The position numbers and the translations under genes were made by a program. From positions 37,014,001 through 37,078,000 of the forward strand of contig OX597814.1 in NCBI GenBank assembly GCA_951406725.2: 64,000 bases of DNA, in the 5' to 3' direction. The notes beneath the pieces are model-generated. The model worked only from the letters and a program-made list of their open reading frames with translations, was not told the origin of the DNA and made no database searches. Shown here one piece after another: positions 47,221 through 53,954 of this stretch (position 1 is its first letter; each line of letters begins with the position of its first letter). This DNA is from Octopus vulgaris (Eukaryota).

Positions 47221-47264
<44 letters not shown>
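45860..47264. repeat. Cryptic (TA/TG/TATG)n simple-repeat domain with a unique island at 46230-46430
   Basis: Direct reading. Confidence 0.9.
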
Positions 47265-47269
<5 letters not shown>

Positions 47270-47512
47270 GAAGGTTTGGAGATGATGTACAGGTATTATA
47301 TATTAGAAAAATTGAGGTAATCAGATCAGATGGTTCATATTTGTAGATATTTATTTATATATTACATTTTTTACATATATATCATATCATTCGGATTAGC
47401 GCTTGCTCCCATTCTAGTGGGTTTTCAAATCAAATCAGTTGTGGGTAGTTTGAACCTTTTTATAGTTTCGTAGTAGTGGGTGAGGAGGAAGTGAGACAGA
47501 GAGAAAATATGT

Positions 47513-47578
<66 letters not shown>

Positions 47579-47785
47579 ATTTATATCTGAGAGTGAAGAA
47601 GTGTTATTTCCGTTGGTCTGCTGGACCCCCTGTGGTTTTATAAGAACTTTGGCTGTCCATTTCAATGTCACTGAGTGTGTGTTGTGCATAGGTTGGCCTG
47701 GCAAATGTCATTTGGGGTCACACTTTCTATGATCATTCTGTGGAGGTGTGTGTGTGTGTGTGTCTGTGTGTGTGTCTGTGTGTGT
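47265..47785 (-). repeat. Inverted partial pseudo-LTR
   Basis: Near-perfect reverse complement of ~48290-48811. Confidence 0.93.
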
Positions 47786-48235
47786 ATTGCCTGTTATATA
47801 CATCATATTATATTATTATCTTTATAATTCACTTCCATCTTTACCCTTTAATTGTCACTTTAATTTTAACTTTCCTATGACATACAACTTTCAAGATGGT
47901 ATAATTTGGTTGTTCATTTTGAACCGATAAAAAGGTTTTTTCAAATATTTTATGTATAAGTCTGTGTGTGTGTATATATATGTGTTGGTATAAATATCAA
48001 CACACAAAAATATTTTTTCTTCTCCACTTCCTCCCTTATTTTTATTTTTTTTTTTTATTTTTATTTTTTTATTTTTTATTCTTTATATTTTTATTTATTC
48101 TTTATATTTTTTTATTTTATTTTTTATTTTTTGTTTTTATTTTATTTTTTTAATTTTTTAATTTTTTATTTTTATTATTATTATTTTTATTTTCCCTTTT
48201 CTCTTTTTGTCTCTCTCCCCTTCTCCAAACACACA

Positions 48236-48283
<48 letters not shown>

Positions 48284-48491
48284 AAAACACACACAGACAC
48301 ACAGAGACACACACACACACACACCTCCACAGAATGATCATAGAAAGTGTGACCCCAAATGACATTTGCCAGGCCAACCTATGCACAACACACACTCAGT
48401 GACATTGAAATGGACAGCCAAAGTTCTTATAAAACCACAGGGGGTCCAGCAGACCAACGGAAATAACACTTCTTCACTCTCAGATATAAAT

Positions 48492-48563
<72 letters not shown>

Positions 48564-48779
48564 ACATATTTTCTCTCTGTCTCACTTCCTCCTCACCCAC
48601 TACTACGAAACTATAAAAAGGTTCAAACTACCCACAACTGATTTGATTTGAAAACCCACTAGAATGGGAGCAAGCGCTAATCCGAATGATATGATATATA
48701 TGTAAAAAATGTAATATATAAATAAATATCTACAAATATGAACCATCTGATCTGATTACCTCAATTTTTCTAATATATA
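47779..48779 (+). repeat. 5' pseudo-LTR (direct repeat)
   Basis: Nearly identical to 52731-53736 apart from microsatellite lengths. Confidence 0.95.
48645..48682 (+). ncRNA. Atypical hammerhead-like motif in the pLTR (copies at 53602-53639 + and 47394-47431 -)
   Basis: gat-TTGAAAA-ccca(ctagaa)tggg-aGCAA-gcgc-TA-atc; palindromic AGCGCT stem III, but GAAA is replaced by aGCAA. Confidence 0.45.
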
Positions 48780-48839
48780 ATACCTGTACATCATCTCCAA
48801 ACCTTCCGATACATATATTTGGATGTACATGACATCAGA

Positions 48840-50447
48840 ATGGATGGACTAATATCAGATCCACAAACAGAAGATACCAAAAATACAGAAAATATTGAAA
48901 GGAATGGAACAGAACCAGACCCCAAACAGGCTTATACCAAACACGCAGAAGACCTAACACAAATCTGCAAAATATGCAATGCTGAAATAAACAAGACAGA
49001 AGCACATCTTCAACAGGGAAATACCAGAAGCATGGAAGATCTACTCACAGAAACCTGTAGTAAGTTAAATTCACTTCTCTCAAAAATTGATACGCTCTTT
49101 GCAAACATTGCTTTAACAATAAATACAATCCAAACACAAAATATTCTCTGTAAAAATAATCAAACAAACACAACTGATAACACAAACCTTCTGGCGGGAC
49201 TACCCCAATCACAAAGGACAACAAATGACGAAGAAACAAAAACTGACACAAACCAAGAAAAACCTTCAAAACCCCAAGACTGGAACAAACTTCTAAACCA
49301 ACGCAAATATGCTTATTGGAAAAACATACGCTGTAAGAACATAGCCAACATATATCAAAACTGGCGGGACTTGAAGAACCCAATACTCCCTAGAAAATTT
49401 CTTATCAAAGAAATAAGGGGTGAAACACTAGAAGAAACAACAATACGTGCAAACCTAGCCCTCTGCCGACTAGAAACGGAAATTTCCCTTCTACAAACAC
49501 GAAGCACACACCAGGAAGATAAGATTAAAACAATCGATACCGTCATAATGGCCGAGATAACAGAAAGGAACAATAACCAAAACAAAGAAAAACTACAACA
49601 ATTATGGAAAGAGGATACCGAACGAGAGGAGGAAAGATCCAGATTTATGTGGACCAAACAACATGAGTGGTTTTTAAACTATGAAAAGAACTATGGTGAA
49701 GAATCAATTATGAAGACAAAAAAACTACCAAAACAAATGAATAGATACAACAAACTAACACCACAAACATACTGGACTCCCAGACATCAAAATAAGCCCT
49801 ACCAAACACAAACCAAAATCCCGCTCCTTACACTGCCGAACCCCCCAATTAACAGATACACAAAATATGAAAGACAACCATCAACCCAAAACCCCACAAA
49901 AACAAACACACCAACAGCAAGACGAGCACAATACATACAACCAACAACCTATAACACTTGGAGAGAACAAATAGAATATGAACAACCACCAACACATAAC
50001 ACTGGACACCCTAAAGGGACACACACATGGAACAATATACAAATGGATAGAAACCAACACATAACCCACAACAAACATCAAGGAAATCGAAACCACACAA
50101 ACACCAACCCCATGCAACCCCACAAATTTCCAAGATGGATAAAAAACAACTCCCACTATCAATACAATACAAACACAATACATGAACCATCCACCTACCC
50201 ACAAAGAAACCTGAACCCCAGTAATAAATATTGGCTCAACCAACACAGAAGATGGGAAGAAAACAACTACCAAAGACAAAACAACACATACAGACCACAC
50301 AGACCACCCCAACTACAAGAAAACCTAAGAACTGAAAATGGAATTTGGAGACGTAACAACACAACCCATTTTTTAGGGAGAGGATACTTCAACCATACTC
50401 CAGACCCAATACACCAAAAATTCCGGATGAACTCCCAAAACACATAG
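48840..50447 (+). CDS. PLE ORF1, 535 aa from the first ATG: coiled-coil N-half and Q/N/H/P/T-rich C-half
   Basis: Uninterrupted ORF inside the pLTR-bounded unit; heptad-like helices, WNKLLNQRKYAYW...YQNW...PRKF domain; overlaps the RT frame. Confidence 0.85.
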   Translation: MDGLISDPQTEDTKNTENIERNGTEPDPKQAYTKHAEDLTQICKICNAEINKTEAHLQQGNTRSMEDLLTETCSKLNSLLSKIDTLFANIALTINTIQTQNILCKNNQTNTTDNTNLLAGLPQSQRTTNDEETKTDTNQEKPSKPQDWNKLLNQRKYAYWKNIRCKNIANIYQNWRDLKNPILPRKFLIKEIRGETLEETTIRANLALCRLETEISLLQTRSTHQEDKIKTIDTVIMAEITERNNNQNKEKLQQLWKEDTEREEERSRFMWTKQHEWFLNYEKNYGEESIMKTKKLPKQMNRYNKLTPQTYWTPRHQNKPYQTQTKIPLLTLPNPPINRYTKYERQPSTQNPTKTNTPTARRAQYIQPTTYNTWREQIEYEQPPTHNTGHPKGTHTWNNIQMDRNQHITHNKHQGNRNHTNTNPMQPHKFPRWIKNNSHYQYNTNTIHEPSTYPQRNLNPSNKYWLNQHRRWEENNYQRQNNTYRPHRPPQLQENLRTENGIWRRNNTTHFLGRGYFNHTPDPIHQKFRMNSQNT

Positions 50448-52684
50448 ACCCCAAAATAATAAACTTATCTAAAAGAGAACTTGACGAATATGAAATGAAC
50501 CTACTACTAAAAGGCCTCAAATTTACACCTACACCCACTCCAAACCTCATAGAACTAAAAACTGACATAGATAACTTCAGCCGCTACCTCCGCCTTATGG
50601 AATTCTTTGAAAATAAAGAAACAGAAGATAACTCAATCATAAGAAAAAAATCCCACTTCACCCCTTACAAGGGAAGTGACAAACACCTTGACACGTACAT
50701 AGAAACAATATCCAAATTCCCTCTTCACACACACAAATGCAAACAGAATCTCCGCAGAGAAGAAAAGCAAGCCCTACAAAAACTGAAAAATGACAAATCA
50801 ATCGTTATAAAAGAAGCTGACAAAGGTGGAGCAATAGTAATTATGGACACAGATTACTACAAAGAAAAGATACTAGAGTTACTGAACAACCAGACATATT
50901 ACAAAGAGGAACCAACACCACCGGAGAAAACAACAATAAGAAAAATTAGAACTTTAGTCAATGAATATCAGGACTCCTTTACAGATAAGGAGGAAGATTA
51001 TCTATGCAACTCACAAACCAAAGAAAGCAACTTTTATGGATTACCTAAAATTCATAAAAGCTCGGAAATACAGAGAGCCATAAAGGAACAGAGGAACCAC
51101 TACATAAGAGTACAAAGACCTGCAGACCTCACGATGAGACCAATAGTGGCAGGACCCCAGGCACCAACACAACAACTAAGCCACTTCATAGATATACTCC
51201 TCAAACCTCTATGCCCACAGATTCCAAGCTACATAAGGGATGACATAGACTTCCTCACACACATTCCAAATACAGTCCCGAAAAACACCATACTTGCAAG
51301 CTTTGATGTCACAAATCTATACACAAACATACCACACACCCTAGGTCTAGAAGCTATAAAACAATCAATAGAAAAATACAGAGAACTTATAGATGAACGC
51401 TTCAAGACAAACTTTATCACCCAAGCCACCCAACTAATACTAGAAGAAAACACATTCTCATTCAACAACAAGACATACCGACAGATAAAAGGCACGGCTA
51501 TGGGTACAAAATTCGCACCTTCATATGCCAACCTAGTGATGGGCTTCCTGGAGAAAAAACTATATGACGAAATAGGGAAAGTCTTCGAACACGACTTCAG
51601 AGAAGACATCAAGAAAAAGTGGAAACGCTACCTCGATGACTGTTTCATCTTTTGGAACAGATCAGAAGAGGACCTACAAACATTCCACAACATCCTCAAT
51701 ACGCTGCACCCATCTATCAATTTCACAATAGATACCAGCCACAACGAACTTCCCTTCCTAGACATCAACATCAAAATACACAACTCCATCGTCACAACAG
51801 ACATCCACTACAAAAAAACTGACACACATCAATACTTAAATTTCCACTCCTGCCACCCATCCCACACAAAAAGAAACATCCCATATAGTATGGCACGACG
51901 AATATGTAGCATAGTAACTGATTCACAAATACGATTAATAAGACTAGATGAACTCAAAAGCTTCCTCCTAGAGCAAAAATACCCCCTTAAACTAATAGAA
52001 AATGGAATCACAAGAGCATTAAAACTAGACATCACACAACTCAGGACACCCAAAACAAAAAACAAAGAAAACACTATCCCTTTTATAAACACACACAACC
52101 CTGGAGTTACCAACATCTTCCAAACCATACATTCAAACCTACCAATAGCCTTACAGAGCCCCAAAATGAAAAACATATTAAACAAATATAGCATAAAAAA
52201 CAGTAGACGACAGGACAAAAACCTAAAAAAACACCTAACAAGAGCGAAATTCTCTTCAGAAACTAAAACGGAATTCTTTGCAAAAGAGTGCGGAGATGGT
52301 AGATGTGGGACCTGCAGCAACCCCACCTACAAATACATAGAGAGCAACAGAGAGATAAGATTTAAAAATGGTGTCATATTCAAAGTAAATGCAGATATGA
52401 ACTGCAAGACGCAGAACGTCATATACTGCATAACCTGCCCCACATGCAAGGAGAATTACGTAGGAGAAACTGGTAATTCTTTGTGCCAGCGAGCCAGGAT
52501 CCACCGACAACATATTCGGCAGGAAGAACTACGCAAAATACCACTAAGCACACACCTAGCTACATGTGGAGAAGGAAAATTTAAGATATTTCCCTTCTAC
52601 AAGTGTCCGAAGAATGACACCCCCTTCAGGAGGAATATGGAAAAACATTTCATAGCTAAGTTCTCCCCCAAATTAAATGGCTGA
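50357..52684 (+). CDS. PLE reverse transcriptase + GIY-YIG endonuclease (first ATG at 50495, frame open from 50357)
   Basis: IINLSKREL..EMNLLLKGLKFTPTP, ADKGG, FYGLPKIHK, MRPIV, SFDVTNLYTNIP, QIKGTAMG, RYLDD, LPFLD, HP.HTK.NIP, CGDGRCGTC, VIYCITCPTCKENYVGET. Confidence 0.96.
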   Translation, partial: QHNPFFRERILQPYSRPNTPKIPDELPKHIDPKIINLSKRELDEYEMNLLLKGLKFTPTPTPNLIELKTDIDNFSRYLRLMEFFENKETEDNSIIRKKSHFTPYKGSDKHLDTYIETISKFPLHTHKCKQNLRREEKQALQKLKNDKSIVIKEADKGGAIVIMDTDYYKEKILELLNNQTYYKEEPTPPEKTTIRKIRTLVNEYQDSFTDKEEDYLCNSQTKESNFYGLPKIHKSSEIQRAIKEQRNHYIRVQRPADLTMRPIVAGPQAPTQQLSHFIDILLKPLCPQIPSYIRDDIDFLTHIPNTVPKNTILASFDVTNLYTNIPHTLGLEAIKQSIEKYRELIDERFKTNFITQATQLILEENTFSFNNKTYRQIKGTAMGTKFAPSYANLVMGFLEKKLYDEIGKVFEHDFREDIKKKWKRYLDDCFIFWNRSEEDLQTFHNILNTLHPSINFTIDTSHNELPFLDINIKIHNSIVTTDIHYKKTDTHQYLNFHSCHPSHTKRNIPYSMARRICSIVTDSQIRLIRLDELKSFLLEQKYPLKLIENGITRALKLDITQLRTPKTKNKENTIPFINTHNPGVTNIFQTIHSNLPIALQSPKMKNILNKYSIKNSRRQDKNLKKHLTRAKFSSETKTEFFAKECGDGRCGTCSNPTYKYIESNREIRFKNGVIFKVNADMNCKTQNVIYCITCPTCKENYVGETGNSLCQRARIHRQHIRQEELRKIPLSTHLATCGEGKFKIFPFYKCPKNDTPFRRNMEKHFIAKFSPKLNG
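50369..50378 (+). promoter_or_regulatory. Putative -1 ribosomal frameshift slippery site T TTT TTA GGG
   Basis: X XXY YYZ heptamer in the ORF1 register; the -1 frame is the RT frame, open from 50357 (TAA at 50354). Confidence 0.7.
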
Positions 52685-52730
52685 AACTTTACTCAACATA
52701 CATTGAAGGAAAAATCTGTGTGTGTGTAGA

Positions 52731-53200
52731 TGTGTGTATTGCCTGTTATATACATCATATTATATTATTATCTTTATAATTCACTTCCATCTTTACCCTT
52801 TAATTGTCACTTTAATTTTAACTTTCCTATGACATACAACTTTCAAGATGGTATAATTTGGTTGTTCATTTTGAACCGATAAAAAGGTTTTTTCAAATAT
52901 TTTATGTATAAGTCTGTGTGTGTGTATATATATGTGTTGGTATAAATATCAACACACAAAAATATTTTTTCTTCTCCACTTCCTCCCTTATTTTTATTTT
53001 TATTTTTATTTTTTTATTTTTTTATTTTTTATTCTTTATATTTTTATTTATTCTTTATATTTTTTTATTTTATTTTTTATTTTTTGTTTTTATTTTATTT
53101 TTTTTAATTTTTTAATTTTTTATTTTTATTATTATTATTTTTATTTTCCCTTTTCTCTTTTTTGTCTCTCTCCCCTTCTCCAAACACACAGACACACACA

Positions 53201-53238
<38 letters not shown>

Positions 53239-53446
53239 AAAACACACACAGACACACAGAGACACACACACACACACACCTCCACAGAATGATCATAGAA
53301 AGTGTGACCCCAAATGACATTTGCCAGGCCAACCTATGCACAACACACACTCAGTGACATTGAAATGGACAGCCAAAGTTCTTATAAAACCACAGGGGGT
53401 CCAGCAGACCAACGGAAATAACACTTCTTCACTCTCAGATATAAAT

Positions 53447-53520
<74 letters not shown>

Positions 53521-53736
53521 ACATATTTTCTCTCTGTCTCACTTCCTCCTCACCCACTACTACGAAACTATAAAAAGGTTCAAACTACCCACAACTGATT
53601 TGATTTGAAAACCCACTAGAATGGGAGCAAGCGCTAATCCGAATGATATGATATATATGTAAAAAATGTAATATATAAATAAATATCTACAAATATGAAC
53701 CATCTGATCTGATTACCTCAATTTTTCTAATATATA
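52731..53736 (+). repeat. 3' pseudo-LTR
   Basis: Direct repeat of 47779-48779, ending in (TA)n. Confidence 0.95.
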
Positions 53737-53954
53737 TATATATATATATATGTATATGTATATATATGTGTATGTATATATATGTGTATGTGTGTGTGTG
53801 TGTATACACATGTGTGTATGTGTATGTATGTATGTATATATATGCGTGTGTATGTGTATGTGTATGTGTACATATACGCGTACGCTCGTGTGTTTATGTA
53901 TATGTAGGTACGTAGAGTTATCTATGTGTGTATTTATATGTACATGTGTGTAAG

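Follow-up and report, generated by a model that had tools for sequence, protein, structure and literature searches.

How an endonuclease-bearing (EN+) Penelope-like element might express its reverse transcriptase (RT) from a second, overlapping reading frame is the question raised by this locus of Octopus vulgaris, which lies in a window of 64,000 nucleotides (the whole stretch of DNA analysed; coordinates refer to it and to the forward strand unless stated). EN+ Penelope-like elements are described as single-ORF in the available parts of three papers (PMC8557442, PMC4209133, and PMC6515669), whereas here two overlapping ORFs are present in all intact copies of two families. The favoured reading, held at a probability of roughly 85%, is that the RT-endonuclease would be made by programmed −1 ribosomal frameshifting. 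A preliminary description of the locus had proposed as much, and layout, fixation, and conservation now support it, the slip itself being deduced from the sequence.

The element, a Neptune-like Penelope retrotransposon, is intact, very young, and recently active. Its second frame encodes both an RT (Pfam RVT_1, E 4e-10), with YLDD at 51629-51640, and a GIY-YIG endonuclease (PF01541, E 9e-6; region 52415–52678), both above the Pfam cut-off, as expected of an EN+ element. The 5′ pseudo-LTR (47763–48782) directly repeats the 3′ end of the element and is 98.8% identical to the 3′ pseudo-LTR (52715–53740), which has a (TA)n microsatellite at its end. On the reverse strand, a truncated pseudo-LTR copy (47258–47788) is the inverse of 48284–48818 (98% identity by self-BLAST) and is joined to a (TA)n tract. 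Direct or inverted pseudo-LTRs and copies truncated at the 5′ end, both observed here, are typical of EN+ elements, and (TA)n at both element ends and at the truncation points of other copies agrees with the microsatellite target preference of Neptune.

A C-x4-C-x2-C linker motif of the Neptune/Nematis type (52289–52315) was recognised by eye against Fig. S2 of PMC8557442; both this CX2-5CxxC linker before the C-terminal endonuclease and the full-length linker-to-GIY spacer lie, in the same comparison by eye, nearer the Neptune rows than the shorter Nematis rows. In a quick RT tree (50 rows cut to 500 aa, with no named Neptune references and omitting seven candidate rows with an RT below 330 aa, among them L085, L093, and L153), the octopus RT belongs to a distinct clade of eight rows (96) that sits among elements with the linker. 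Athena and the Terminons have no endonuclease in the RT ORF and are telomeric; here GIY-YIG is present and copies lie inside many contigs. No hammerhead ribozyme core was matched in the pseudo-LTR by a simple core pattern, which minimal variants may escape, or by Rfam, which returned microsatellite look-alikes only.

Recomputing the frames reproduced the architecture first described. ORF1 (48840–50447) runs for 535 aa from its ATG to a TAG, and the RT-endonuclease frame (50357–52684; 775 codons) is −1 relative to it, with an overlap of 91 nt (50357–50447). Within the overlap, the slippery heptamer T TTT TTA (50369–50375), followed by GGG, is placed so that an ORF1 codon begins at its second base, which puts it in the X XXY YYZ register for a −1 slip. 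The computed product of such a slip is 512 + 769 = 1281 aa, the fusion size estimated earlier. ORF1 holds five in-register slippery heptamers, of which only this one falls in the overlap, and its T run is the only one of at least six within the surrounding 3.5 kb (T = 18%). The RT frame has its first in-frame ATG at 50495, behind the IINLS motif (50456-50470) at the conserved N terminus of Penelope-like elements, as had been claimed.

The split layout is fixed in two independently active families. In the family of this element (family A), the same two frames are found in 30 genomic loci, and the heptamer is kept in 35 of 45 genomic pattern matches, none of which has an added base at the slip site. 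Contigs from four independent sequencing runs (four studies), presumed to be RNA and examined as contigs, in which rare forms drop out, cross the site with no gap or joint. The concern that the run might really be T7 was thus dispelled in the 45 copies and in these contigs alike. The young copies are almost identical in sequence and have a star-like relationship, which implies that their source copy already had the split layout. The second active family, B, shares 55% RT identity and carries T TTT TTT in the same place and register, with the frames split canonically in 96 of the first 100 copies listed from 187 matches. The distance from slip site to IINLS is 87 nt in families A, B, and C alike.

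Beyond octopus, the slip site is conserved across a large clade, and more strictly than its amino acids would demand. Five public contigs with T6A (L081, L082, L085, L087, and L093) and one with T6G (L157) carry the heptamer in register with a −1 open frame of 144–434 codons, and the first ATG of the RT frame lies inside or behind IINLS in all eight intact cases. Among 90 of 149 ORF1 homologues (at least 330 aa, P0164 omitted), 78 have Phe-Leu within their last 35 residues, compared with 4–10 in four windows further upstream and 8.9 after shuffling. The residue preceding Phe-Leu is never Q, K, E, M, or W in 81 of 81 homologues (background 0.198, p 1.7e-8), which fits a pyrimidine before TTT in every one. 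Together, these constraints suggest that ORF1 is kept open as far as the slip site, while the tail around it is not conserved. Purifying selection also acts on ORF1 (dN 0.31, dS 3.36 for L082/L093). In a separate clade the site is a different classic heptamer, G GGT TTY, and a covarying hairpin lies 9 nt downstream of it. The expectation of conservation in relatives was hence borne out far beyond the octopus family, in family B, public contigs, and ORF1 homologues. Against the frameshift reading stand the 12 of 90 homologues without a terminal Phe-Leu and L088, a member of the same clade without T6. Searches for related loci found none in viral contigs and, with a single-protein query, none in genome contigs; none of 2748 candidates scored was a long fused ORF1 form, which is weak evidence.

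Under the proposed mechanism, ribosomes would start at the ORF1 ATG and mostly end at the stop 24 codons past the slip site, giving the 535-aa ORF1 protein, while a minority would shift back by one base at U UUU UUA and read on into the 1281-aa ORF1-RT-EN fusion. The excess ORF1 protein may serve a structural, RNA-packaging role. The element group thus probably makes much of the first protein and little of the copying enzyme. Only weak pairing had been noted downstream, and the 70 nt behind the site in family A indeed fold no better than that (MFE −9.0 kcal/mol, z −0.67). In a simple pseudoknot scan of family A, 19 of 40 shuffles scored at least as high as the real sequence, and no stimulatory hairpin or pseudoknot rose above shuffles in families A, B, and C (z −0.67, −0.61, and +1.4); of the six non-octopus T6 cases, only L081 and L087 fold better than shuffles. 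These tests for a 3′ stimulator 5–9 nt downstream covered local folds; a long-range or protein-assisted stimulator may still act. Because no 3′ structure was found, a slip efficiency of a few percent would be attributed mostly to the intrinsic slipperiness of U6A, which by itself gives 4–6% −1 product in reticulocyte lysate in the accessible part of PMC3458567.

The same U run, followed by AG, could instead be a 3′ splice acceptor, in which case splicing would join a donor further upstream to the RT frame, and RNA left unspliced would encode ORF1. The acceptor consensus is matched by TTTTTTAG with a G behind it, a same-phase YAG follows the U run in seven of eight intact T6 cases (family B included), the codon after Phe-Leu starts with G in 54 of 81 homologues, and spliceosomal introns are known in Penelope-like elements (PMC4209133, as far as its available text goes). 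No matching-phase donor scoring four of six exists, however, in ORF1 of families A and B, L081, L082, L085, L087, or L157, and L093 has one weak phase-matched donor only; a donor in the 5′ UTR would leave no ATG before IINLS. No joint occurs in the ungapped contigs of the four runs, and no intronless genomic copy was found among the six further sequences that match the downstream pattern, so the bridging intron that the preliminary description had named as an objection receives neither a phase-matched donor nor an intronless copy. Three older copies read T6-A-A-GG, 27 of 81 homologues have no G after TTA, and splicing needs neither an ORF1 open up to the site nor a fixed −1 offset. Splicing is accordingly judged quite unlikely.

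Separate translation of the RT frame, by reinitiation or a non-AUG start after the ORF1 stop and with the U run incidental or a pause, has a proposed precedent in LINE-1 ORF2. The ORF1 stop (50445-50447) lies only 9 nt before IINLS, a possible start precedes IINLS in 56 of 120 predicted RT relatives, so that part of the clade may use a separate start, an ATG overlaps the ORF1 stop in other Penelope-like contigs (L096, L098, and L107), and the lack of a detected stimulator in families A, B, and C would suit it. Yet the predicted RT starts are scattered from −61 to +20 without a conserved position, no ATG precedes IINLS in any of the eight DNA cases, and the ORF1 stop varies from 3 to 25 codons past the slip site while heptamer and register are kept; this explanation is very unlikely.

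Still less credible is a joining of the frames by polymerase slippage (an extra U), or a supply of RT in trans from rare in-frame genomic copies. Family B does include in-frame fused copies—three with A8 and one with T8 among the 100 listed, as well as a few fused through other homopolymer indels—but these share no common private substitution, as would be expected of independent homopolymer errors. No in-frame fused copy of family A occurs among 45, no base is inserted in the contigs of the four runs, and a slipping polymerase would have no need of a heptamer in codon register. Finally, although the break does lie in a homopolymer, a sequencing error or private mutation of a single-ORF element is refuted by the recurrence of the layout in 30 loci, 45 pattern matches, four studies' runs, family B, and dozens of ORF1 homologues.

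The protein that frameshifting would produce in excess consists of a short heptad-like segment near the N terminus, a conserved helical core, and a long low-complexity tail, and belongs to a family of 1074 representatives (E<=0.001) that has no Pfam entry. The core (49281–49688), with three long predicted helices and a P-R-K-F loop, was modelled by AlphaFold2 at a pLDDT of 91.5 (helices 13-42, 62-108, and 111-148 of 49245-49766), and its columns are nearly invariant across 113 sequences. The N/Q/H/T/P-rich, net basic tail (49710–50368 by composition; K+R 15% and D+E 4% in aa 291-535) is putatively RNA-binding. No CCHC knuckle or Pfam family was found in ORF1, a fold search of PDB and BFVD with the core, the only part folded separately, found nothing at E<=0.001, and an ESM Atlas search gave no usable match; the best fold match of the core (VIA Z 8.7) is within the range of common helical bundles. 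The label "gag-pol-like" given to the locus therefore holds as an analogy of layout, without detectable kinship of ORF1 to retroviral Gag.

For a large clade, the standard single-gene picture of EN+ Penelope-like elements changes. The elements, which are the sister group of telomerase, would, like retroviruses, set how much structural protein is made relative to RT, and a handle is gained on the role of their N-terminal domain. A U6A site conserved without 3′ structure would represent natural stimulator-free −1 frameshifting. Annotations in which RT begins at its first ATG cut these proteins short. Because the family is intact and was active recently, both the efficiency of the slip and the need for it in retrotransposition are directly testable.

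More tentatively, and with the odds somewhat against it, the three-helix front domain of Penelope-like elements may be their ancestral structural protein (in an ORF1p/Gag role), fused in frame to the RT in single-ORF elements. Several EN+ lineages would then have uncoupled it independently so as to make it in excess. A large clade of marine invertebrates would do so through frameshifting on U6A, which in octopus would need no RNA structure beyond the heptamer and the G that follows; another clade would use GGGUUUY with a hairpin, and a third an overlap of stop and start. This reading is suggested by the tree, by matching predicted helix layouts, and by a weak match between profiles that exceeds the controls (E 9e-4; score 25 versus at most 16) in a trimmed, widened comparison; when the two ORF1 groups were compared as whole profiles, the match was not significant (E 0.42).

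Among known systems, Athena and the Terminons share with the octopus element a helical or coiled-coil ORF1 upstream of the RT and a frameshift between the two, but are described as endonuclease-less and telomeric, whereas the octopus element bears GIY-YIG, is dispersed over chromosomes, and has no pseudoknot that could be found. The Terminon paper of Arkhipova et al. 2017 reportedly names T6A, G3T4, and T7 as slip sites, which match the heptamers of the octopus families and their relatives. The Fig. 1 legend on Penelope-like elements of Craig et al. (2021, PMC8557442) mentions an ORF1 set apart by a frameshift that has a pseudoknot; this apparently refers to endonuclease-less Athena, but the figure may mark Neptune too. 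The novelty suggested earlier thus stands in part, as frameshift-separated ORF1s are already published for Penelope-like elements and the EN+ ones are called single-ORF. Neptune, as far as the available text of PMC8557442 describes it, has a single ORF, whereas the octopus element has a 535-aa ORF1 in the +1 frame relative to the RT, plus the slip site. A sponge Penelope-like element has an ORF1p with an SGNH esterase (Schneider et al. 2013, PMC3905857, in part), which the octopus ORF1 lacks; the accessible text of that paper does not mention a frameshift. HIV-1 gag-pol uses the same U UUU UUA GGG, with a structural-type ORF first and enzymes in the −1 frame (PMC4373837 and PMC3458567, in the parts available), but the octopus element is non-viral, no stem-loop was found behind its site, and its ORF1 lacks a CCHC knuckle, belongs to no Pfam family, and matched neither viral nor solved folds. 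The likeness of the two slip sites is probably convergence, not kinship.

The Penelope element in the window has the usual anatomy of its kind: a 1 kb direct repeat (47763–48782 and 52715–53740), an inverted partial repeat copy in front of the element (47258–47788), and (TA)n at both ends. As the preliminary description stated, ORF1 runs for 535 aa from the ATG at 48840 to the TAG at 50447 and contains the heptamer T TTT TTA (T6A; 50369–50375) in register. The −1 frame (50357–52684), which overlaps ORF1 by 91 nt, encodes reverse transcriptase (RT) and a GIY-YIG endonuclease (EN); its first conserved motif, IINLS, starts at 50456, and its first ATG, at 50495, comes behind that motif. The predicted product of a −1 slip is 1281 aa. 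The closest named protein to ORF1 is an Octopus sinensis model (93% identity over half of ORF1).

A sequencing error, such as T6 read for T7, is not the source of the split frames. In the 2.8-Gb octopus genome, six T are present in 29 of the 30 loci fetched from a DNA search (40 scored matches). Among 45 gapped-pattern matches to this family (family A), none has a frame-fusing extra base: 32 are identical to the window at the site, three are without one G after it, two are point variants, and eight, from one tandem array, have the first T of the heptamer changed. This array (L250, contig C18 of G000, approximately 3686600–3687750) comprises eight units of about 158 nt across the slip site, in which G replaces the T that opens the heptamer. 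Contigs from four runs in four studies (presumed RNA) contain no gap, inserted base, or joint at the site. Mutual differences between the youngest copies amount to few private changes; such near-identity indicates that the source element was already split, yet still producing RT. Three of 22 young copies (L016, L017, and L041) have one G missing at window positions 50376–50378, directly behind the heptamer, and otherwise have no change in common; this may be a spot where reverse transcription or sequencing is prone to slip.

Two further families in the same genome bear on conservation, and a slippery heptamer at this place is kept in family B and in part of family C. Family B (e.g., L224, 1526–2890) is a second young and larger family, with at least 187 junction-bearing copies about 99.8% alike and an ORF1 of about 430 aa. 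Its RT is 55% identical to that of family A and its ORF1 core 40%; its heptamer, T TTT TTT, lies 87 nt before IINLS, a spacing equal to that of family A. Among the first 100 of 187 matches, 96 junctions are canonical, three have one extra A, and one has one extra T; in-frame copies thus do exist, and no private substitution is common to them among 32 copies compared. In family C, whose copies are older and decayed, T TTT TTA occurs at equal distance in three of five visible sites and five T in the other two.

Beyond octopus, the 132 public loci were examined where they held the RT start plus sufficient upstream DNA. All six of the closest—five with T6A (L081, L082, L085, L087, and L093) and one, L157, with T TTT TTG (T6G)—have an open −1 frame followed by an in-register heptamer, and each matches the ORF1 profile. 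A quick tree places the window, family B, L081, L082, L087, L157, L137, and L088 in a single clade (support 96), in which the ORF1 of L137 is cut and its heptamer is T6G, and L088 lacks a T6. Mussels and oysters are the sources of the named RT relatives. Built from six ORF1s, the profile has 1074 matching representatives; none of the 150 best exceeds 706 aa. Phe-Leu occurs within the last 35 residues in 78 of 90 homologs of at least 330 aa (upstream windows, 4–10; shuffles, 8.9). In none of 81 does the residue before it lack a pyrimidine-ending codon (background 0.198, control 0.316, p = 1.7e-8), and a G-starting codon follows in 54. Seen at the protein level, this pattern is the footprint of N-N-T TTT TTA (G), ending an otherwise unconserved tail. 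Two homologs of the P0124-like group (P0130 and P0132) end in A-D-Y-F-R instead of the x-F-L of their close relatives; these ends are presumably a variant site. Purifying selection acts on ORF1, with dN/dS of about 0.09 in one of two compared pairs and 0.21 in the other. The slip site is real, conserved, and very probably functional.

Programmed −1 frameshifting at the heptamer would join ORF1 and the RT frame, and we put its probability at roughly 85%. It is the economical reading because translation of ORF1 has to extend as far as the site, the frame offset is −1 without exception, and there is no early ATG: none precedes the first conserved RT motif in eight of eight intact DNA cases. Splicing, with the site acting as a 3′ acceptor, is a serious rival, since TTTTTTAG with a cut before the following G also reads as an acceptor and a YAG is kept in the same phase behind the site in seven of eight cases; however, no matching donor or intronless copy was found, the four runs' contigs show no junction there, the AG is missing in three older copies, and G is absent after Phe-Leu in 27 of 81 homologs. 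Separate initiation of the RT frame is weakened by the scatter of start positions, although 56 of 120 predicted RT relatives start ahead of IINLS. As regards a frameshift stimulator, only weak downstream pairing had been noted; indeed, in families A, B, and C none shows up in the 70 nt behind the site, whose predicted folding is matched by that of shuffled sequences. U6A alone gave 4%–6% in lysate (PMC3458567), and intrinsic slippage could be enough without a stimulator.

ORF1 has no Pfam family and no knuckle. Its core is predicted to form three long helices (pLDDT 91.5), a model with no significant fold match. A separate clade (L130, L133, L138, L139, L142, L146, L148, and L150) has G GGT TTY with a hairpin 9 nt downstream; in this structure, drawn from these same sequences, 84% of cells are paired, three pairs have two-sided changes, and 0 of 500 shuffles pair as highly. 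Single-ORF elements (L097, L119, L168, L171, and L173) have in-frame N-termini that align with the ORF1 of that clade, the model of this group has helix boundaries nearly equal to those of the octopus core, and the profile match between the two is weak, albeit above controls (E = 9e-4). Together, these are suggestive of ORF1 being the N-terminal domain that Penelope-like elements (PLEs) ordinarily carry, freed from RT. By analogy, and from its basic tail, its protein is a putative RNA-binding structural partner. In L119 (671–1765), a single-ORF PLE, D-V-E-L-N-P-G-P, which we take to be 2A-like, stands directly before the helical N-terminal domain. Linker-bearing PLEs (L096, 1833–1857; L098, 3566–3602; L107, 506–518; also L109 and L114), with ORF1s of 461–715 codons where uncut, have an ORF1 stop that overlaps or abuts an RT-frame ATG, an apparent stop-start coupling in place of a slip site. 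Many animal PLE sequences (L156–L212; P0003, P0008, P0060, and P0091) sit in bacterial genome bins or under symbiont names, most likely as host DNA carried along.

Slip sites of this type were reportedly described in Athena by Arkhipova in 2017. The suggested novelty for a GIY-YIG-bearing PLE holds in part: the literature searched yielded no EN-bearing PLE described with a frameshifted ORF1, and the first 300,000 of 449,034 characters of a frameshifting review do not name Penelope, but frameshift-separated ORF1 in PLEs is already in print. The Fig. 1 legend of Craig et al. 2021 (PMC8557442) has a frameshift with pseudoknot that can separate ORF1, and the preprint legend ties this layout to Athena and Coprina with no stated restriction to them; that it is already marked for Neptune in the literature, including that figure, is conceivable, though the odds are against it. 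An esterase ORF1p is listed in a PLE in Schneider 2013 (PMC3905857). Canonical EN-bearing PLEs are termed single-ORF in Craig et al. 2021, whereas the window element has two ORFs. By anatomy it is a Neptune-like Penelope element and not an Athena element; its ORF1 has no apparent kinship to Gag, and its slip site in all likelihood works in the manner of a gag-pol frameshift.
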